A stretch of DNA of 64,000 nucleotides, taken from NCBI GenBank assembly GCA_965223155.1, contig CBDCVR010000015.1, positions 832,001 to 896,000 on the forward strand. The letters are read 5' to 3'. The stretch's first letter is position 1. Every line of letters starts with the position of its first letter. A program made the translations under genes and the position numbers. Positions 50,892 through 61,032 of the stretch are shown here, piece after piece. The notes below the pieces were generated by a model. That model had not been told where the DNA came from. It saw nothing but the letters and a program-made list of their open reading frames with translations, and did no database searches. Origin of the DNA: Candidatus Multivoradales bacterium (GTDB lineage: Bacteria; Acidobacteriota; Thermoanaerobaculia; Multivoradales; JAHEKO01).

Positions 50892-53800
50892 CTACTCCGG
50901 CTGCCAGGCCGGTATCCGGCCCGGCGTCCAGGGTGCGCCCGCGGCTTCCATCTCGGCCTCGAGCTCGCCGAGATCCTCCTCGACCAATGCCCTGAGCGCG
51001 CCAAGAACCGGCTCGAACGCCTCGGCGGCGATGTCGTAGGCGCGCCGGTGGGTGGCGGTGGGCGCCGAGCTCGACGTCCAGCTGCCGCCCACGGCACGGC
51101 CGATCCGGGCCGAGATCGAAGGCGGCGTGGGCTCGAAGCGGCGGGAGACGGTCCGGTCTCCCTGAAGCGAGACCTTGAGGTCCTCGAGGCGGGTTTCGAG
51201 ATCTTCGAGCCGTGCCACCCAAGCCTCGCTTTCGGTCGGCGTGTCGAGAGCGGCGCGGCGCAGGTGCTGGATCCGGGTTTCGGTCTCTCCGACCACGCGG
51301 TTGGCGCCCTGGACCGCCCGCTGCAAGCGGGCGAGCTTCTTCTGGAAGGCGAGGAGAGCGGCCTTGTCGTCGGCCGGCAACGAGACCGTACCGGTCGGCA
51401 CCGTCTCGAACGTCTCCGGCCCGGCGAGCTCGGTCAGCTCGTTGTTCTCGAACTTGGCGAGACTCACCGAGTAGGTCCCGGGAACCACCATCGGTCCCAT
51501 GGGATCGCTCGAGAAGGCGTTCCGCGCTCGCGGTGTGAGGCGAGCGGGGTCGTGCGGCGGATACCGAAGATCCCAGCTCACCCGATGGAGGCCCTTCTCG
51601 GCCGGACCGGTCAGGCGGCGAACGACGTGTCCGTCGGAGTCCCGCACGGTCAGGACGATCGCTGGATCCTGGGCGCGATCTTCGGCCCGGAGCTCTTCCC
51701 AGCTCGGGTAGCCGACGTCCTCGCCGGCTTCCTTCTCGGCTTCCTCGGACTGGCGCTTCTTCTTCAGGCTCTGGAACCCGTCCTCGAGGTAGTAGGTGAA
51801 GACCGCTCCGTGCGGGGGATTTTCGGCCGTGTAGAACGAGTCCCCCTGGAAGGCGACGTTGTTGTAGCCGAGCTCGAAGCTCTTCATGTACATCCGGGTG
51901 CGCCGCGGAGCGAACAGGATCGCCTCGGCTTCGAGCGCTTCTTCGCTCATCCGCCGGAGCGGCGAGTAGTCGTCGAGGATGAAAAAGCCGCGCCCGAAGG
52001 TGCCGACGACCAAGTCGTTTTCGCGAGCCTGGATCTCGAGGTCGCGCACGTTGATGGTCGGCATGCCGGCGAGCTTCACCCAGCTCGTGCCGCCATTGAC
52101 CGAGACGTAGGCCGCCCACTCGGTGCCGGCAAACAGGAGATCGGCCGTCTCGTGATCCTGGGCGACAGTGTAGACCGTGCCCTTGTCGGGCAGATCGCCG
52201 GCGATCGACGTCCAACTGCGGCCGCGGTCGGTTGACTTCAGAAGGTACGGCTTGAAGTCACCCGACTTGTGGTTGTCGATCGCCGCGAAGACCGTGTCAG
52301 GGTCGTGCTTCGAAGCTTCGAGGTCGCTCACATACGCCATCGCCGGAACACCAGGAAACGAGTCCTCGCGTCTCCAGTTGGCGCCGCCATCTTCCGAGAT
52401 CTGAATCAAGCCGTCATCGGTGCCGACGTAAAGCAGCCCTTCGATCAGTGGTGATTCCGAGACCGACACGATCGTGCCGAAGAACGAGGTCGATCGGTTC
52501 TTCGACACGGTGTCCACACCCCAGACCTTCCCCATGACCTCGAGCCGGTTCCGGTCCAGGTTCCGGGTCAGATCGCCGGAGACCGGCCGCCAGGAGTCAC
52601 CCCGGTCGTCCGAGCGATACAGGCGCTGCGAGGCGAAGTAGAGGCGAGTCGAGGCGTGCGGACTGATCGCGAACGCCGAATCCCAATTCCAACGCGGCGG
52701 ATCCTCTCCGGGCTCGGTCTGGGGCTTGATGTCGGTTCGCTCCCAGCTCTTCTTGTCGAGCCGGACCAGGCCGCCGTACTGCCACTGGGAGTAGACGATG
52801 TCGGGGTTGTCGGGATCGACCCCCGGGTCGAAGCCGTCGCCGCCCACGGTCACGTACCAGTCCCGGTTGGTGATGCCGTGCTCGGAGGTGGTCCGGGAAG
52901 GACCGCCCAAGGTGGAATTGTCTTGGGTGCCGCCATAGACGTTGTAGAAGGGCAGCGCGTTATCGACCGCGATCTTGTAAAACTGCGTGATCGGCAAATT
53001 GGCCTTGAAATCCCAGGTCGCGCCCCGGTCCCAGGTCTCATAGACGCCGCCGTCGCAGCCCGAGATCATGTGCCGGGTGTCGTCCGGATCGATCCAGTGG
53101 GCGTGGCTGTCGACGTGCTTGGCAAACTCCGGGACCTTCTCGAAGCTCTTGCCGCCGTTCTCGGACACATGGAGCCAGGTGTCCATCGAGTAGATCCGGT
53201 CCGGGTTCGTCGGATCGACGAAGATCTCGTTGTAGTACTGGGGCGAGCCCGACACGTAGTCCGAGCGTCTCTCCCAGTTGAGCCCACCGTCGGTCGAGCG
53301 GAAGAAACCACTCTTCTTGCCCAGCGACTCGACGATGGCGTAGACGGTATCCGGTGCCGACGGCGCTACCGCCAGCCCGATCTTGCCCTTGTCCTCCTTC
53401 GGCAGACCGTTTTCGATCTTCGACCAATTGGCACCGCCGTCCGTCGTCTTGTAGACGGTCGATTCCGGACCGCCGTTGATGAGCGTCCAGGTCCGCCGGC
53501 GCCGCTGGTAGGAGGACGCGTACAAGACGTCCGGGGCGCGCGGGTCCATCCAGACTTCGTTGACCCCGGTGTGCTCGCCGATCTCGAGCACTCGCTGCCA
53601 GGTCTCGCCGCCGTCGGTCGTCTTGTAGACGCCGCGCTCACCGCCGGCCCGCCAGAGCGGGCCCTGAGCGGCGACGTAGACCGTCGCCGAATCGCGCGGA
53701 TCCACCACGATCCGCCCGATGTGTTCCGACTCGCCCAGGCCCACGTTCTTCCAGTTCTTGCCGGCGTCCTGGGACTTGTAGACCCCATCGCCGTAGGAGA

Positions 53801-54203
53801 CCGAGCGCTGCGAGTTGTTCTCGCCGGTACCGACCCAGATCACGTCCGGGTTGTTGGGGTCCAGGGTGATGCACCCGATCGAAAACGATCCCTCGCCGTC
53901 GAAGATAGGCGTCCAGGTGGTGCCCGCGTTGATCGTCTTCCACACCCCGCCGGAAGCCGCGGTCACGTACCAGATGCTCGAGTCGTCCGGATGCACGACG
54001 AGATCCGAGATCCGGCCCGAGGCGATCGCGGGACCGATCTCGCGCAGCGGCAACCCGGCCAGGAGCTCGGCCGAGACCCGAAGCTCGGAGCCATCCGGGC
54101 TCGCGGCCGAGGCCTTGGCTTTGCCCCGCTTGGCGGCGGCCGGTTCGGCAGCCCCGGCGAGAACGGTCCAGGTGACAAGAATTCCGACCAAAGTCCGCGT
54201 CAT
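50892..54203 (-). CDS. Exported VPS10/BNR-repeat glycosyl hydrolase-like protein (paralog 1)
   Basis: IGP..SGRI, many S.DGG..W Asp-boxes, GGTQDN, GTFGRG; signal peptide. Confidence 0.88.
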
Positions 54204-54379: not shown

Positions 54380-54658
54380 TTGCGCCCGGCCCGCCCCAAC
54401 CCCGAAGTGCTCTTTCGACACGTGAACGACGAGACCATCCTCGTGCACCTCGACTCGGGAGCAATCTTCTCGCTCAACGAGACCGGATCGCGGTACTGGC
54501 AGCTCCTCGAGTCGGGACTGGCGCCCGAGGCGCTCCTGGACCGAATGGCCGAGGAGTTCGACGTGGCCCGCTCTCAGCTCGCCAGGGAGATCGCCGAGCT
54601 GCAGACAAGCCTCCTGGAGGCCGGGTTGGTCGAAGTCGGCGCTCCTGCGGTTGACTAG
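54380..54658 (+). CRISPR. placeholder
   Basis: not a CRISPR; disregard, see the CDS entry at the same coordinates. Confidence 0.
54380..54658 (+). CDS. PqqD-family RiPP recognition element (lasso B1-like)
   Basis: V.FR.V.DE.ILV.L.SG..FSLNETG...WQLL ... EFDV ... L.EAGLV pattern; 92 aa; TTG start. Confidence 0.85.
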   Translation: MRPARPNPEVLFRHVNDETILVHLDSGAIFSLNETGSRYWQLLESGLAPEALLDRMAEEFDVARSQLAREIAELQTSLLEAGLVEVGAPAVD

Positions 54659-56555
54659 GCCGCCTGAGATCGACATGGCCGCCTGGGCTCTCAGCTGGCT
54701 ACCCGAGATCGAGGCCGAGCCCCGGCTCTACGGCGATCCTCCGGGACCGGACTCCTCCGTCAGCCTTTCTCGCTCGGACGCCGGCGACTTTTCGTTATTC
54801 GACGGCTACCTCCTCGACCCGGGCAAGCTTTCTGCCCGGTCCGACCCAACGGCTTCGAACGCCGAGATCCTCGCCCGCGCCGATGGCGACGGGACGCCCA
54901 GGATCCTCGACCGGCTGCGCGGGAGCTTCGTCTGGATCGTCTGGAACGCCCAGCGCCGTCGGCTGACGGTAGTCCGGGACCTGGCCGGGCTCACCCCCTG
55001 CTTCTTCACTTGGGATGGGAGCGCGCTTCTCGTCGCGCGCCGACCCGACGCGCTCCTGAGGCTCGGCCGTGACCTGGGGCGACTCGACTTTGCCGTCAAC
55101 CGGGAGGCCGTCGCCGAGTACCTGGCGTCGTCCTATTCGGAGGCGCTCGCCGACGAGACCTTCATCAGCAAGGTCAGGCGACTGCGGCCGGCGCACCTGC
55201 TGCGGCTCGACCGGACCGGCCTGGAGATCGATCGCTACTGGGCGCCGCTGCCGGGGGGATTCGCTTGGGCCACGGCGGACGAGGCCGCAACCTTCCCCCA
55301 GGTGCTCGAAGCCGCAGTGGCTCGCTGCCTCGACGCGGGGGCGGACTCGCTGGCCCTGAGCGGCGGCTTCGATTCGGTGAGCCTGGCGGTGCTGGCCGCC
55401 CGGTTGCGCGGTAGCCGGGCGCCACTCGACGCCGTCTCGCTTCACTTCGACGGCGGTGACTGCGACGAGAGCGCCACCCAGACGGCGGTCGCCCGCGCCC
55501 TCGGCATGCCCCAGACCATCCGATCGCTCGCCCAGAGTCTTGGAGACCGCAATCCGGTCGAGGCCGCCCTGGCTCTCTCCGGCGAGAGCCCGGTGCCGGT
55601 GCTGAGCGTATGGCAAGCGTTCTACACCGGTCTCATGGCGAGCATGCGCCCCAGGAAGAGCGGCCTGATGCTGGGAACCGGCGGCGACGAACTCATGGCC
55701 GTCGATGGAAAATATGGCGCGGACTGTGTGCTCGCGGCCTCGCCGCTCCGCCTCTGGCGGTTCTACGACTCCTGGCGGCGGGCTTCTTCGTTCGGACCGC
55801 TATTTGTTGCCCGCGAGATCTTCTGGCGCCACGGCCTGCGGGCAGCGGGACGCGAGATCCTGCTGCGGGCTCTTGACGCGGGGGTCCCGGAGCTCCAAGC
55901 GCGGATCCTCCGCCGGCGCTGGCGCCGGCGAATCGAGGCCAATACCTGGCTCACCCGCGACGCCGGGCTCCTGGACCGGCTCGAACGCCGACGCTCCGGT
56001 GGTACCGACCTCCGCCAAGTCCGGGAGCCAAGCCTGTACATTCGGTACCTGCGCGCCTTGTTTGACTCGCCGGCCCTGATGATGGAGCTCGATCAGGGAG
56101 CTGCCTGGGCCCAGGCCCAGGGTATTGCCACATTCCTGCCATTTTTCGATCGAGACGTCATCGAGCTGAGCCTCCGCCTGACTCCCGAGCAACTCCTGGC
56201 GGGCGGCGAATCCAAAGCACTCTTGCGGAATCTGGTTCGTGGAGGACTCCCCCAGGTCGAGCTCCCTGCCCGCAAAGTCGGCTTCGGTATGATGGTTCAT
56301 GACGTTCTCCGTAAGAGTGGCCGCGAAATCTGGCAGAATTGGCGTTCGACGCTTCGGCTCGGCGAGATTGGCCTGATCCAGCCGGATCGTGGACAGCGAG
56401 CCCTCGATGGCTATTTTGCTCATCGCAACAACGATTGGTTCTTGGCGTGGAAGATTCTGAGCGCGGAAGCCTGGCTGAGGCACCATCGGTCGCGGCCGAC
56501 GAGACCACCCCGGCCTCTCTCCGAAAACCCTGGCGAAAGTCCTGGAGGCCCATGA
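54651..56555 (+). CDS. Asparagine-synthetase-like macrolactam synthetase (lasso cyclase C-like)
   Basis: LSGGFDS ATP-pyrophosphatase loop, GTGGDE, LPFFD, EAWLR; no N-terminal Cys; alternative start ATG 54675. Confidence 0.82.
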   Translation: MTRPPEIDMAAWALSWLPEIEAEPRLYGDPPGPDSSVSLSRSDAGDFSLFDGYLLDPGKLSARSDPTASNAEILARADGDGTPRILDRLRGSFVWIVWNAQRRRLTVVRDLAGLTPCFFTWDGSALLVARRPDALLRLGRDLGRLDFAVNREAVAEYLASSYSEALADETFISKVRRLRPAHLLRLDRTGLEIDRYWAPLPGGFAWATADEAATFPQVLEAAVARCLDAGADSLALSGGFDSVSLAVLAARLRGSRAPLDAVSLHFDGGDCDESATQTAVARALGMPQTIRSLAQSLGDRNPVEAALALSGESPVPVLSVWQAFYTGLMASMRPRKSGLMLGTGGDELMAVDGKYGADCVLAASPLRLWRFYDSWRRASSFGPLFVAREIFWRHGLRAAGREILLRALDAGVPELQARILRRRWRRRIEANTWLTRDAGLLDRLERRRSGGTDLRQVREPSLYIRYLRALFDSPALMMELDQGAAWAQAQGIATFLPFFDRDVIELSLRLTPEQLLAGGESKALLRNLVRGGLPQVELPARKVGFGMMVHDVLRKSGREIWQNWRSTLRLGEIGLIQPDRGQRALDGYFAHRNNDWFLAWKILSAEAWLRHHRSRPTRPPRPLSENPGESPGGP

Positions 56556-56662
56556 AGCTGAGCCACCTGGGCTCGATCGGCGATCTCGTTCAGGGAAGCG
56601 GCAAGACCGGCACGGTTCCCGACGGCGATCCCCAATCTGTTCGCAAGACCGGCGTCGGCTAG
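56552..56662 (+). CDS. Putative RiPP precursor peptide MKLSHLGSIGDLVQGSGKTGTVPDGDPQSVRKTGVG
   Basis: ATGA overlap with the cyclase stop; lasso-leader-like (W.P)xKLxxLGxxxxLVQG; true start may be further upstream in frame. Confidence 0.72.
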   Translation: MKLSHLGSIGDLVQGSGKTGTVPDGDPQSVRKTGVG

Positions 56663-57534
56663 GCCGTTCGGTCGTTCTCGAAAACCGCCCGCAGCCGCCG
56701 CACGGTCCGCCGGAACCGCTCGGGCCCGGACGGATACGCAAGACGCGCGACCTCGACCGAGCCGACCAGGTGTAAGCAGGAGGCAGCCATTCGCCGGGTT
56801 GCCTCACCGTCGGCCGGGTCGAAGCGCCAGCAGTGCTTGAGAAGCTCCGGAAAAGCGATTGGCGCGGGAAGGGGTTCAAGGACGGAACCCTCCAGCTCGG
56901 CTGCGCCGTCTCGACGCTCGAGCAGGACGACGCGCCGGATCGGAAGGAATCGGGGCGGCCGCCGCGCATCCGCCAGCCATTCTGAGGGCGGCTCCGAAAA
57001 CCCCTCCGGATCGAAGCCCAGGAGCTCAAAGGCGTCGGGAAGCAGCCTGAGCCGGAACGGCACGAGCCAACCCCGGCAGGATTCACCGTCCGGCTCGAAG
57101 GGCACGAGGTCGTCCGCGGCCACCTGGGCTCCGGAGAGTCCCAGGGCCGCGGCCAGCGTCGACTTGCCGGTGCCCGAGTCTCCGCAAAGCACCGCTACGC
57201 CGCCGGCCGCGACCACGGCGCTGGCATGGAGCGAGGTCAGCCCGCGAGCCTCGAGGATCAGTGGCAGCACCTGGCGCCGGTACACCTCGGCGATCTCGTC
57301 GCCGGCCGCGTCGCCGGCCACCTCGGCAACCGCTGCGGCCGAGGTCTCGGTCCCGAATCGAAAGAGGCCCACGGCATCGAGGCGCAAGAATCGCTCGGCC
57401 CCCAGAGAGCCGGCGGTACCGATCTGGACGCCCCGCGGATCGCACCAGGGCCAGGAGCGACCCCCGCGCGACGTCCAGTCCGCCCCGGGATCGCCCACCG
57501 TCGCGACCCGCTCGATCTTCAACTCCGGTAGCAT
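56659..57534 (-). CDS. HPr-kinase-like protein (RiPP-associated kinase type)
   Basis: LHASAV, GDSGTGKSTL, ADDL motifs; convergent with the precursor, stops overlapping in CTAG. Confidence 0.8.
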   Translation of the reverse strand: MLPELKIERVATVGDPGADWTSRGGRSWPWCDPRGVQIGTAGSLGAERFLRLDAVGLFRFGTETSAAAVAEVAGDAAGDEIAEVYRRQVLPLILEARGLTSLHASAVVAAGGVAVLCGDSGTGKSTLAAALGLSGAQVAADDLVPFEPDGESCRGWLVPFRLRLLPDAFELLGFDPEGFSEPPSEWLADARRPPRFLPIRRVVLLERRDGAAELEGSVLEPLPAPIAFPELLKHCWRFDPADGEATRRMAASCLHLVGSVEVARLAYPSGPERFRRTVRRLRAVFENDRTA

Positions 57535-57672: not shown

Positions 57673-60600
57673 ATGACCCGACCCCTCGGCACCGCCCGGA
57701 CCAATCGTTGCCCCGTCTTGTCCCGGATCGCTCTTGCCACCGTCGTCTTGACCCTCCTGTCCCTCGTTTTCTCGACACCCGCCGAAGCCCGTAAGGGCAA
57801 GAAGAAGGCGGCCGCCGAGTCCGCTGAGGCCCCCGAGTCCGATACCGCGCTATCGTCGGCGACCTTCTCCGGCCTCGAGTTTCGCTCGATCGGCCCGGCT
57901 CTCATGTCGGGCCGCATCGCCGACATTGCCGTTCATCCCGACGACCAGTCGGTCTGGTACGTGGCGGTGGGGAGCGGCAACTTGTGGAAGACTACGAACG
58001 CTGGCACTACCTGGACGCCCATCTTCGACGACCAGGGCTCGTACTCGATTGGTGACGTGACCCTGGATCCGTCCAACCCCGAGATCGTTTGGGTCGGCAC
58101 CGGCGAGAACGTCGGAGGGCGTCACGTGGGCTACGGTGACGGCGTGTACAAGAGCCTCGATGGGGGCGCAAGCTGGGAAAACGTCGGCCTCGAGAGCTCG
58201 GAACACATCGGCAACATCGTCGTCGATCCGAACGACGGCAATGTCGTCTACGTCGCATCTCAAGGCCCACTGTGGTCTGCCGGAGGCGACCGCGGTCTCT
58301 TCAAGACCACCGACGGCGGCGCGACCTGGGAGAAGATCCTCGGCGGCGGCGAGTACACGGGCGTCAACGAGGTGATGATGGACCCGCGGGACTCGATGGT
58401 TCTCTACGCCTCGACCCATCAGCGCTTTCGGAACGTCGCCGCCCTCCTCAACGGCGGCCCCGAATCGGGACTCCACAAGTCCACCGACGGCGGCACGACT
58501 TGGCGTGAGCTCTCGAACGGCATCCCCGAAGACGACAAAGGCAAGATCGGCATCGCGATCTCGCCCATCAACCCGGACGTTGTCTACGCGACGGTCGAGA
58601 CCCCACAGCGGGAGATCGCCGTCTACCGTTCCGCGAACGCCGGCGCGAGCTGGGAGAAGGGCGCCGATGTCGGCTACTCGGGCACCGGCCCGCACTACTA
58701 CCAGGAGATCTTCGCCAGTCCCCACAAGTTCGACCGCATCTACCACATGAACCCGCGTATCTCGGTCTCGGACGACGGCGGTACGAGCTGGCGGCCGCTG
58801 GGCGAGGAGTACAAGCACGGCGACAGCCATGCGATGGCCTTCGATCCGAACGACCCGGACTACCTTCTAGTCGGAAGCGACGGTGGGCTCTACGAGAGCT
58901 TCGACCAGGCCAAGAGCTGGAAGTTCCTCGCCAACCTGCCGGTGACCCAGTTCTACAAGGTGGCGGTGGACTACGACGAGCCCTTCTACCACGTGGTCGG
59001 CGGCACCCAGGACAACAACACGCAGTACGGGCCTTCGCGCACCGACAACGTGCACGGCATCCGCAACTCCGACTGGGAGATCACGCTTTTCGGCGACGGC
59101 CACCAGCCGGCGATCGACCCCACCGACCCGAACATCGTCTACTCCGAGTGGCAGGAAGGGAACCTGACCCGCTGGGACCGAGCCACCGGCGAGATGATCT
59201 ACATCCAGCCGCAACCCGAAGCCGACGAGGAATGGGACCGCTTCAACTGGGACTCGCCCATTCTGATCAGCGCCCACGACCCGGCCCGCCTCTACTTCGC
59301 GAGCCAGCGAGTCTGGCGCAGCGACAACCGCGGCGATTCTTGGCGGCCGGTTTCCGGAGACCTCTCGAAGGGCGTTGATCGGCTGACCCAGCCGATGATG
59401 GGCAGAGTGTGGCAGTGGGAGTCGAACTGGGACGTCTGGGCGATGTCGAAATACAGCACGATCACGTCTCTAGGGGAATCACCCAAGGACGAGAACATCC
59501 TCTACGCCGGCACCGATGACGGCCTCGTCCAGATCTCCGAGGACGGCGGCCAGACCTGGCGCAAGATCGACTCGCTGCCCGGCGTCCCCGATGGTTTCTT
59601 CGTCAACGACATCAAGGCCGACCTCCACGACGCGGACACCGCCTACGTCGTGGTTGACGACCACAAGTCAGGCGACTTCTCGCCCTACGTCCTGAAATCG
59701 ACCAATCGAGGCCGCTCCTGGACCTCGATCGCGAGCGATCTTCCCGAGCGCCACGTCGTGTGGCGTCTGGTGCAAGATCACGAGAACCCCAATCTCCTCT
59801 TCGTCGGCACCGAATTCGGGGTCTTCTTCACGGTCGACGGCGGCGGCAAGTGGGTCAAGCTTTCGGCCGGGATGCCCAACATCCCGGTGCGGGACCTGGC
59901 CATCCAGAAGCGGGAGAACGACTTGATCGCGGCGACCTTCGGCCGCGGCTTCTACGTCCTCGACGACTACAGCGCTCTGCGCTCGATCTCGGAGGAAATG
60001 CTCGAGTCGTCCGACGTCGAGCTCTTCGAGCCGCGTAAGGCCTGGTGGTACATGGAGCGCCGTGCCCTGGGCGGCTCCAAGAAGGCCAGCCAGGGCGAGG
60101 CCTTCTACGTCGCCGACAACCCGCCTTTCGGCGCCACCTTCACTTACTACCTGAAGGATTCCCTCGAGACCGCCAAGGAGGCGCGCAAGAAGCAAGAGGG
60201 CGAGGTCGCCAAGGAGGGCGGAGACACGCCCTACCCCGGATGGGACGCACTCCGCGAAGAGGATCTCGAGGAGGCTCCTGCGATTCTCCTAACGGTCACC
60301 AACGGAGCCGGCGAGGTGGTTCGCCGCCTGACCGGGCCGGCCAAGGCCGGCGTCCACCGCGTGACCTGGGACCTACGGTATCCGAGTTCGAGCGCCTGGA
60401 GCGAGGACTGGAACGACGAGAACGCAAGCGGTTTCCTGGCCGAGCCCGGAACCTACACAGTTTCGCTGGCCCAGCGCTCGGGGACCGTCGTGACCGATCT
60501 CGACCAGAGCCAGTCCTTCGAGGTCGTACCGCTTCGCGAGCGAGGCCTTCCGGGCGCGAGCCCGGCCGAGGCCGTGGCCTTCCTGCGCGAGCTCGACGCC

Positions 60601-61032
60601 TTCAACCTCCAGGCCGAGGCCGCGAACTCCGCGCTCGCGGAGGCCGAAACGAAGCTCGACGCCATCAGGCAGGCGCTCATGCGGTCGACTCTGGCGCACA
60701 GCCAGCTCGATGACAGCGCCCGCGGTCTGTGGCGGAAGGTCAAGGACCTCCAGCTCTGGCTCGAAGGCAGCGAACGCCGGGACAACATGGGTGATCCGGG
60801 ACCGGTCTCGATCGAGCGCCGGCTCGGCGTCGCCTTCATGGGCAACATGCTGTCGACCTACGGACCGACACCGACTCATACGCGCCAGTTCGAAATCGCC
60901 AAGGAGGAGTTCGCCCGACTCTCTTCGGAGCTCAACCAACTTCTCGAAACCGACCTACCCGCTCTCGAGACTCAGCTCGACGCGGCGGGCGTTCCGTGGA
61001 CTCCGGGCCGCGGCATTGGCGGAGGATCCTGA
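57673..61032 (+). CDS. Exported VPS10/BNR-repeat glycosyl hydrolase-like protein (paralog 2)
   Basis: Same architecture as 50892..54203, with shared blocks [27 protein letters not shown]. Confidence 0.88.
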   Translation: MTRPLGTARTNRCPVLSRIALATVVLTLLSLVFSTPAEARKGKKKAAAESAEAPESDTALSSATFSGLEFRSIGPALMSGRIADIAVHPDDQSVWYVAVGSGNLWKTTNAGTTWTPIFDDQGSYSIGDVTLDPSNPEIVWVGTGENVGGRHVGYGDGVYKSLDGGASWENVGLESSEHIGNIVVDPNDGNVVYVASQGPLWSAGGDRGLFKTTDGGATWEKILGGGEYTGVNEVMMDPRDSMVLYASTHQRFRNVAALLNGGPESGLHKSTDGGTTWRELSNGIPEDDKGKIGIAISPINPDVVYATVETPQREIAVYRSANAGASWEKGADVGYSGTGPHYYQEIFASPHKFDRIYHMNPRISVSDDGGTSWRPLGEEYKHGDSHAMAFDPNDPDYLLVGSDGGLYESFDQAKSWKFLANLPVTQFYKVAVDYDEPFYHVVGGTQDNNTQYGPSRTDNVHGIRNSDWEITLFGDGHQPAIDPTDPNIVYSEWQEGNLTRWDRATGEMIYIQPQPEADEEWDRFNWDSPILISAHDPARLYFASQRVWRSDNRGDSWRPVSGDLSKGVDRLTQPMMGRVWQWESNWDVWAMSKYSTITSLGESPKDENILYAGTDDGLVQISEDGGQTWRKIDSLPGVPDGFFVNDIKADLHDADTAYVVVDDHKSGDFSPYVLKSTNRGRSWTSIASDLPERHVVWRLVQDHENPNLLFVGTEFGVFFTVDGGGKWVKLSAGMPNIPVRDLAIQKRENDLIAATFGRGFYVLDDYSALRSISEEMLESSDVELFEPRKAWWYMERRALGGSKKASQGEAFYVADNPPFGATFTYYLKDSLETAKEARKKQEGEVAKEGGDTPYPGWDALREEDLEEAPAILLTVTNGAGEVVRRLTGPAKAGVHRVTWDLRYPSSSAWSEDWNDENASGFLAEPGTYTVSLAQRSGTVVTDLDQSQSFEVVPLRERGLPGASPAEAVAFLRELDAFNLQAEAANSALAEAETKLDAIRQALMRSTLAHSQLDDSARGLWRKVKDLQLWLEGSERRDNMGDPGPVSIERRLGVAFMGNMLSTYGPTPTHTRQFEIAKEEFARLSSELNQLLETDLPALETQLDAAGVPWTPGRGIGGGS

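Follow-up and report, generated by a model that had tools for sequence, protein, structure and literature searches.

The locus described here raises the question of which amine closes the ring of a lasso-type peptide when the acids of its core lie outside the expected interval. Lasso peptides are defined by a ring of 7-9 residues closed from the N-terminus, and genome-mining rules, RODEO included, assume this. The locus is a four-gene cluster (B1, C, A and K) in a 64,000-nucleotide stretch of a Candidatus Multivoradales bacterium genome (GCA_965223155.1, contig CBDCVR010000015.1, positions 832,001 to 896,000 of the forward strand; hereafter the window), and the element under study is gene A. 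The best explanation of gene A was the precursor of a kinase-associated lasso-type cluster for a peptide that is made on the ribosome and modified post-translationally (RiPP), with the order B1-C-A and a convergent K. As to the ring, the chances appear about even that this family, found in Acidobacteriota, Rokubacteria and Polyangia and in one Gaiellaceae record, joins an internal Lys through its epsilon-amine to an Asp 6 or 7 residues downstream, which would give a 26- or 29-atom ring with two tails, the N-terminal one free and variable in length.

The precursor family and its leader

The frame 56447-56662 (+) encoded WRPMKLSHLGSIGDLVQ followed by GSGKTGTVPDGDPQSVRKTGVG, and the translation of 56339-56662 (+) ended in LRKPWRKSWRPMKLSHLGSIGDLVQGSGKTGTVPDGDPQSVRKTGVG and the stop codon. 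With Gly 56594 taken as residue 1, Val is residue -2 and Gln is residue -1. Positions 7-9 of the core are T, V and P, and acids are found at 10 and 12. A preliminary description of this DNA had reported the Val at -2, the two Asp residues outside 7-9, the peptide and its coordinates, all of which were correct on retranslation. The codons of the core residues discussed below lie at 56603-56605 (Lys4), 56621-56623 (Asp10), 56627-56629 (Asp12) and 56645-56647 (Lys18).

Homologues were collected by profile searches. A profile of 8 precursors retrieved 88 short proteins, including the 36-amino-acid (aa) call of the window (P0061), and a second profile search added 54 more peptides. From a metagenome scan with the cyclase alignment, 80 of 160 confirmed relatives were kept as loci; a scan of genome contigs added Rokubacteria and Polyangia loci, and among 401 screened Acidobacteriota genomes of at least 90% completeness, 12 carried a family cyclase at E <= 1e-60. 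The family set comprised 222 homologous short open reading frames (ORFs), corresponding to 190 unique leader-plus-core sequences. After removal of the truncated or frameshift-like P0061, P0094, P0083, P0092, P0054, P0056 and P0082 from the 88 proteins, the resulting 81-peptide profile matched the window ORF with E = 4.4e-13 among 15,276 stop-to-stop ORFs and gave 80 ORF matches in 78 sources. A precursor homologue was detected in 68 of the 80 metagenomic cyclase loci, mostly just 3' of the cyclase, and several of the 12 loci without a match end at the cyclase. The cyclase was strictly linked to the precursor across the family, with one cyclase per precursor, and a K homologue was found by local profiles in 73 of the 78 precursor-bearing sources. 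Gene content, family membership, leader register and spacing statistics were established directly in this analysis. The window ORF is almost certainly a genuine precursor of the family, which is widespread and uncharacterised.

One leader register fitted 216 of the 222 homologues: Trp, hydrophobic residues at +5 and +15, Gly or Ala at +9, and a single residue following +15. This register equals the canonical lasso spacing YxxPxLx3Gx5Tx with Trp at -17, and W(-17), P(-15), L(-12) and G(-8) are kept in the window. Trp(-17) was present in 136 of 136 called homologues, and the W-x-P-M variant in 50 of them. The residue at -2, counted in the 183 sequences defined in the next section, was V in 90, I in 35, M in 30, L in 23 and F in 5, with no Thr. 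The window ORF thus stands as a real lasso-type precursor with a hydrophobic residue other than Thr at -2. Because Ile/Val(-2) is already described as typical of kinase-containing lasso clusters in the available text of Duan 2023 (PMC10368454), the Val(-2) of the window is not the novelty it had been taken for. In the same text, BsfB2 together with BsfB1 cut after Ile(-2)-x(-1) in vitro, and by analogy cleavage of the window precursor after Val(-2)-Gln(-1) is likely. When 12 family peptides were scanned against NCBIfam at E up to 10, only sub-threshold matches were obtained, such as lasso_leader_L3 (12.8 bits, cut-off 19) and rhodolasso (13.5 bits, cut-off 30).

Modelling of the leader complex, recommended earlier, weakly favoured recognition by B1: the predicted complex of B1 with the 71-aa precursor scored 0.54 and the best control 0.19. 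The runs agreed in at least 96% of contacts and the predicted local distance difference test (pLDDT) value of the partner was at least 53; no interface was given. Of 157 solved complexes, 116 reached the mark used for such predictions, as did 2 of 215 mismatched pairs, and scores of 0.60 or under comprised only 18 of the 157 solved complexes plus both passing mismatches. Solved complexes of a RiPP recognition element (RRE) with a leader exist, and likeness to them may explain the pass of this model.

The start of gene A was also re-evaluated. The ATG at 56552 overlaps the stop of the cyclase gene (ATGA), and W-R-P lies in the same frame 5' of that ATG, as the preliminary description had noted. 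The gene caller's form from ATG 56552 is the 36-aa P0061, which is without the recognition motif. Since ATG 56552 encodes the conserved Met(-14) of the W-x-P-M leader variant, the true start very probably lies upstream, and the shorter call is corrected here to a truncated one. In the 95 codons before the stop, two canonical in-frame starts lie 5' of the Trp, GTG 56447 and TTG 56435, and no others; the listed ORF start, TTG 56339, is still further upstream. Judged by sequence, GTG 56447, the nearest canonical one, is the most likely start. It would place 32 residues before the Trp, and the family ranges from 3 to 65 with a median of 18. The frame 5' of ATG 56552 agrees with the family leader residue for residue, and overlap of gene A with a non-conserved cyclase tail was also found in locus L011, over ~83 nt.

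Conserved spacing in the core and the proposed ring

A Lys with an acid at +6, +7 or +8 was identified in 183 of the 190 unique sequences; most of the other 7 look truncated or frameshifted. Asp or Glu was located at +6 or +7 in all 183. When the acids over +6/+7/+8 were scored (D, acidic), 99 sequences were of the type.D., 72 of the window type D.D, 8 of the type DD. and 4 of the type D.., and an acid at +8 only was never observed (0/183). Conservation of K, D-x-D and K in ORFs near related cyclases had been put forward as a check. The first Lys with its acid passed it, whereas D-x-D (72/183) and the second Lys, 6 residues past the last acid (93/183), did not. The full motif K-x5-[DE]-x-[DE]-x5-K was present in only 41 of 183, that is, 41 of the 72 D.D-type sequences, which speaks against the pseudo-symmetric K-x5-DGD-x5-K as a conserved design.

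The spacer between the cleavage site and the Lys ranged from 2 to 15 residues and was never 0 or 1 (n = 183). The lengths were 2 (1 sequence), 3 (49), 4 (61), 5 (6), 6 (22), 9 (1), 10 (21), 12 (6), 13 (1), 14 (14) and 15 (1). The residue before the Lys was G in 164, A in 9, V in 3, P in 3, T in 2, E in 1 and N in 1. A Ser or Thr was found within K+1 to K+4 in 176 of 183, in agreement with the earlier suggestion that a Thr or Ser after the first Lys is a plausible kinase target.

No Cys was present in 144 of the 183 sequences; 17 had two in the tail, 3 had one in the segment from K to D and one in the tail, 16 had one in the spacer and one in the tail, and 3 were odd. The odd cases were P0056, which looks frameshifted, the L043/L051 peptide, whose only Cys occupies core position 1, and the metagenome protein P0135, in which the unrelated 21-residue tail after PGEPNLKP resembles a translated sequencing adaptor and was treated as an assembly artefact in the counts. 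All 16 unique spacers of 13-15 residues contain one Cys, accompanied by one Cys five residues past the Asp, and the spacer Cys is kept while the spacer length and the adjoining residues vary. The 28 spacers of 9-12 residues have neither Cys, and Asn or Thr occupies the tail position. The coupling of spacer Cys with tail Cys suggests that the spacer belongs to the mature peptide.

Members of the long-spacer subfamily (9-15 residues) were located at L090 5277-5462, L081 1837-2022, L097 1522-1695 and L065 2605-2781 and among P0095-P0148, with one record named Gaiellaceae. In those with 13-15-residue spacers the tail Cys lies within PGEPC[YL]KPPG.

Closure of the ring by the Lys epsilon-amine would account for the invariance of the Lys, the fixed Lys-Asp spacing and the Cys in the spacer, as well as for the freedom with which the spacer varies in length and composition. 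By atom count, a ring from Lys N-zeta to Asp C-gamma would contain 26 atoms for i,i+6 and 29 for i,i+7. These numbers equal the classical Gly1-Glu8 and Gly1-Glu9 rings, so that the same active-site geometry could serve. In the window Lys4-Asp10 is preferred, since sequences in which a single acid of this pair survives retain that at +6 (4 D.., no ..D). Our confidence is evenly divided on the proposal that the ring of the window peptide is one Lys4-Asp10 side-chain lactam made by the cyclase, with a free GSG stub left. Lys-Asp side-chain lactams had been suggested before; a single one fits the family best, and the bicyclic form fits it poorly.

In the proposed pathway, translation would begin upstream of ATG 56552, most likely at GTG 56447, overlapping the non-conserved cyclase tail, and the PqqD protein would bind the W-x-P-M-x-L...G leader. 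The kinase would then phosphorylate a Thr near Lys4 on the precursor, and comparison with Ser3 of BsfA makes Thr5 or Thr7 the likely site. B2, encoded ~275 kb off, would cut after Val(-2)-Gln(-1). The Asn-synthetase-like enzyme would adenylate the side chain of Asp10, and the epsilon-amine of Lys4, not the alpha-amine of Gly1, would close the ring. The product would have a 7-residue, 26-atom ring, G1-S2-G3 as a free N-terminal stub and a G11-G22 tail in which Arg17/Lys18 may act as plugs. A role in loop and plug, or in function, is probable for Asp12-Pro13 and Arg17-Lys18. The cleavage site is placed here by analogy with Bsf, and the phosphorylation site, the Lys-Asp bond and any threading are likewise what we infer.

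Several points weigh against a ring anchored on Lys. As the Lys was chosen by rule, namely the first one followed by an acid at +6 to +8, part of the spacing comes from the rule itself, although the conserved K-x-S...D-P-G-E context argues that the Lys-acid spacing is real. The Cys covariation occurs in one clade and coincides with spacer length, and may be a single evolutionary event. B1 scored 39.5 and 36 bits against the NCBIfam lasso PqqD models, whose cut-offs are 70 and 80, and the cyclase scored 93 bits against the NCBIfam lasso cyclase model NF033535, whose cut-off is 525. No good Shine-Dalgarno sequence precedes GTG 56447, and GGAGG is located 3 nt 5' of ATG 56552, where it is built from the W-R codons. 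According to the available text of Duan 2023 (PMC10368454), the mature Bsf lasso was never detected. All characterised lasso cyclases, as far as a June 2026 review (PMC13352647) covers them in its accessible part, use the N-terminal alpha-amine. The Gly that precedes the Lys in 164 of 183 sequences is as in a classical Gly1, and it is possible that a later B2 cut would allow a G-K...D8 or D9 alpha-amine ring.

The last two points lead to a classical lasso, which is the strongest competitor but an unlikely one. Here Gly3 would close onto Asp10 to form an 8-residue ring (9 in the K+7 subgroup), with the Lys as ring position 2 and B2 cutting downstream of the canonical register. G-K-T-G-x3-D is indeed similar to the core of BsfA, G-T-S-G-N-E-x-D, which carries its phosphate on Ser3 (PMC10368454, in part), and class V peptides keep a functional Lys2 in an Ala1-Asp8 ring according to the part of PMC13178200 at hand. 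However, such a ring predicts a spacer of exactly 1 at the canonical cleavage site, which was seen in 0 of 183, and the B2 cut would be needed 1 to 14 residues past a strictly conserved register. The residue at -2 of that register is hydrophobic in 183 of 183, and G, A, P or N would take the new -2/-1 positions. In 19 of 183 the ring would begin with Pro, Val, Glu, Thr, Asn or Ala, one such case being the Pro in the second precursor set of the nearest relative (G015), which has its own cyclase and PqqD. In addition, the conserved spacer Cys, paired with the tail Cys, would be lost with the leader.

It is rather improbable that no macrolactam is formed, either because the product is a linear phosphorylated peptide or because the locus is decayed and only the 36-aa ORF from ATG 56552 is expressed. 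The ribosome-binding signals mentioned above would favour the short ORF, B2 is encoded outside the cluster, and K is inverted relative to the family order. Against this reading, all four cluster ORFs (B1, C, A and K) are intact with their motifs preserved, the frame ahead of the ATG follows the family leader throughout, the linkage of cyclase and precursor is strict, and an unlinked but intact B2 is a trait of the lineage, as described in the next section.

A bicyclic product with Lys4-Asp10 and Asp12-Lys18 lactams, symmetric about PDGDP, is very improbable. The motif on which it is based is present in the window, its closest relatives and many members of groups A and B, and about half of the family has the second Lys. 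Nevertheless, 90 of 183 sequences do without that Lys, among them an entire subgroup (QFQA.., QFQSC..) and the second copy of G015, where RR is found, the second Asp is lacking in 111 of 183 (.D., D.. and DD.), and each precursor is served by one cyclase. The KTG duplication (caagaccggc in the DNA) reported earlier is a real repeat: GCAAGACCGGC, of 11 nt, occurs at 56601 and 56643, 42 nt apart, and has 3 copies in the window where 0.12 would be expected by chance. It consists of the same Lys, Thr and Gly codons used twice, so that a duplication event is not required, and the second KTG did not hold up as a functional repeat. Least probable of all, an enlarged N-terminal macrolactam from Gly1 onto Asp10 (10 residues, as suggested earlier) or Asp12 (12 residues) would suit the likely cleavage at the canonical site and the equal distance of Asp12-Pro13 from that site in the window-like and GGGGK groups, but was rejected because the distance from cleavage site to Asp varies from ~9 to 23 residues across the family with its spacers of 2 to 15; one-residue changes of ring size are already poorly tolerated by lasso cyclases according to the consulted part of a review, and such a ring would probably be too large for Arg/Lys plugs to hold.

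Two further ideas were considered and dropped. The Walker-A likeness of GSGKT suffers from a misfit in spacing, and other members have GKGG or GKLS. Formation of lysinoalanine via phospho-Ser elimination would have no lyase, and the Lys-Ser distance is only 2.

Cluster genes and the unlinked leader peptidase

The features of the cluster are collected in Table 1.

Table 1. Coordinates of the cluster genes and precursor segments in the window
Feature	Position	Strand	Description
B1	54380..54658	+	PqqD-like leader-recognition protein (RRE), 92 aa; PF05402 E = 6e-15
C	54651..56555	+	Asn-synthetase-like macrolactam synthetase, lasso-cyclase type; PF00733 E = 2.2e-28, with GATase-like N-domain
A	56447..56662	+	precursor, 71 aa from GTG 56447 (75 aa from TTG 56435); family-profile match
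Leader segment W(-17) R P M(-14) K L(-12) S H L G(-8) S I G D L V(-2) Q(-1)	56543..56593	+	family register
Predicted B2 cleavage site	after Gln 56591-56593		analogy with Bsf
Core GSGKTGTVPDGDPQSVRKTGVG	56594..56659	+	spacer G1-G3; Lys4; Thr5, Thr7; Asp10; Asp12-Pro13; Arg17-Lys18; Gly-rich tail
K	56659..57534	-	HPr-kinase-like peptide kinase, 291 aa, convergent with A

The usual gene order in the family was (B2)-B1-C-A-K-(B2)-(N), and a B1 homologue was located directly 5' of the cyclase in most related loci. For the window cyclase, TTG 54651 was the listed start, and the start at ATG 54675 (MAAWALSW...) agrees with the N-termini of homologues. Its translation contains the ATP-binding motif SGGFDS, and the N-terminal catalytic Cys is absent. 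A PDB sequence search with this cyclase returned only a hydroxyamidotransferase (7ylz, E = 1.9e-08) and AsnB, with no close lasso cyclase. The kinase gave weak family matches, PF07475 (E = 0.0039) and TIGR04352 (E = 8e-06), both under the cut-offs. Its translation, LHAS...GDSGTGKST...ADD, corresponds to the H-G-G-G-K-S-D-D motif reported as essential in the lasso kinase BsfK in the available text of Duan 2023 (PMC10368454). In related loci K is mostly 3' of A on the same strand, and therefore K is apparently inverted in the window. The stop of A (TAG, 56660-56662) and that of K (56659-56661, minus strand) share the palindrome CTAG at 56659-56662, and there is neither intergenic space nor terminator between the two convergent genes.

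No ATP-grasp domain was detected in the cluster ORFs by the Pfam scan, and the window cluster is without N and D genes. There is no peptidase among the four cluster genes, hence no clostripain-like transpeptidase there; the genome was not searched for one. The GC content of the cluster (0.64-0.71 in a profile of 48-62 kb) was similar to that of its flanks, and thus no sign of recent transfer was found. The cluster is flanked by divergent genes for paralogous secreted Sortilin/VPS10-BNR repeat proteins of ~1,100 aa, at 50892-54203 (-) and 57673-61032 (+), an arrangement that looks as if the cluster had been inserted between duplicated genes. A second Asn-synthase-like match was found elsewhere in the genome (G000:C13:851537-853042, locus L003), with 30% identity, E = 1.9e-17 and an in-frame TAG.

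The nearest relative among 40 related genomes was G015, a Multivoradales metagenome-assembled genome (Acidobacteriota, Thermoanaerobaculia). It carries two tandem B1-C-A sets and one K, the peptides end in RKPWSSPKIDSLGQLRRFVRGGGKTGDQADSDPNVQRKQGLG and RKRWVKPDIEDLGRLHEFVELRPKSGAGTDIDPDSARRQTTVPD, and its two cyclases are 42% and 38% identical to that of the window. The neighbours of the G015 cluster differ from those in the window, being a class A penicillin-binding protein and a BTAD/AAA regulator. Genomes of the same genus (G003, G002 and G001; loci L005, L006 and L007) belong to another branch of the family, with cyclases ~30% identical and a peptide containing IVRGGGGKLSTSVDGDGRKPPG; in these loci K is upstream and divergent, and no B1 stands beside C. 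Variant PqqD and B2 proteins were also noticed. PqqD is fused to the N-terminus of the cyclase in L014 (3647-5815), a 235-aa protein of L015 (3195-3902) has PqqD at its C-terminus only, and the 284-aa B2 of L011 (2789-3643) has an N-terminal extension of ~160 aa without a Pfam match.

No transglutaminase-like B2 was present in the ~48-64 kb part of the window scanned with Pfam. A single intact PF13471 gene was found in the genome (G000:C15:1163494-1163859), on the same contig ~275 kb downstream of the cluster. Its product shares 49% identity with the B2 of a same-genus genome and 40% with that of G015, which is likewise unlinked, and it retains the Cys and His. This locus (L001 1378-1938) is an orphan and apparently monocistronic, with an unannotated ORF of 429 aa on one side and, on the other, an unrelated ORF of opposite orientation. 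In G001 and G015, too, B2 is kept away from the C-A-K genes and the copies are intact. As all three genomes have an unlinked B2, the split cluster is a trait of the lineage. Across the family, local profiles found B2 within the fetched stretches of 42 of the 78 related sources, and among the sources with 4 kb or more on each side, six were without it (the window, L010, L044, L071, L091 and L094). Among the 11 other Acidobacteriota genomes carrying a family cyclase, PF13471 was present in 10; G003 (91% complete) had no PF13471 match in the whole genome.

Relation to characterised systems and meaning

The closest characterised system is the bsf cluster of Bradymonas sediminis, together with the Ile/Val(-2) precursors of Bradymonadales, Acidobacteriaceae and Sphingomonadales, as far as they are described in the available part of Duan 2023 (PMC10368454). 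Shared features are the split B1/B2, an Asn-synthetase-like C, an HPr-kinase-like K with H...GxxGxGKS...DD, a leader of YxxPxL type and a hydrophobic residue in place of Thr at -2. BsfK phosphorylates core Ser3 on the precursor, and a comparable phosphorylation of a Ser/Thr in the ring region is proposed here by analogy. The differences concern the core above all. In the ion table of the paper, the BsfA core starts at the cleavage site (G1-T2-pS3...D8; G-T-S-G-N-E) with no Lys in the first six residues, whereas our family has a spacer of 2-15 residues and an almost invariant Lys before the Asp, which in the window is at 10, not 8. Trp replaces Tyr at -17, B2 is unlinked, and N and D are missing from the window cluster. 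Overlap of the family with the Acidobacteriaceae precursors of Duan 2023 is possible, the two having been compared by the text at hand.

Resemblance to other clusters was partial. Paeninodin and pseudomycoidin clusters (PadeK, ThcoK, PsmK and PsmN; PMC9266682, in part) likewise have an HPr-kinase-like tailoring kinase acting on the precursor, and a nucleotidyltransferase (PF14907) occurs in many family loci. In contrast to the PadeK, ThcoK and PsmK systems, where that source describes Thr(-2) and modification of a conserved C-terminal Ser, the family mostly ends in Gly and has Ser/Thr beside the Lys. From the accessible part of PMC13178200, class V lasso peptides (gelatinamin A, lariocidin B, triculamin type) have an isopeptide-forming Lys near the core start in an x1-K2...D8 layout. 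Unlike the ring proposed here, theirs is formed between the alpha-amine and Asp8, with an extracellular clostripain-like transpeptidase linking Lys2 to the C-terminus. The Acidobacteria lasso cluster of PMC9064862 was also considered and does not belong to this family, its kinase being of aminoglycoside-phosphotransferase type.

No report of a lasso-cyclase Lys-Asp ring, an enlarged lasso ring or this precursor family was found in the open-access literature. Graspetides such as microviridins contain omega-amide lactams between Lys and Asp/Glu, made by ATP-grasp ligases. The Lys-Asp side-chain macrolactam proposed here would be similar, but the only candidate enzyme is of Asn-synthetase type. 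To our knowledge, side-chain-to-side-chain lactams in RiPPs are so far known only from ATP-grasp enzymes. A single Lys-Asp lactam would add a new and noteworthy variant to lasso chemistry.

The rule of a 7-9-residue N-terminal ring is thus broken in one consistent way by no fewer than 183 distinct precursors, which come from several phyla. If the ring is not anchored on Lys, the family still shows leader peptidases to be capable of cutting at a register that varies. If it is, side-chain amines enter the chemistry of lasso cyclases, engineering gains a scaffold whose N-terminal tail is free and variable, and the elusive mature product of related kinase-linked clusters such as Bsf might be explained.

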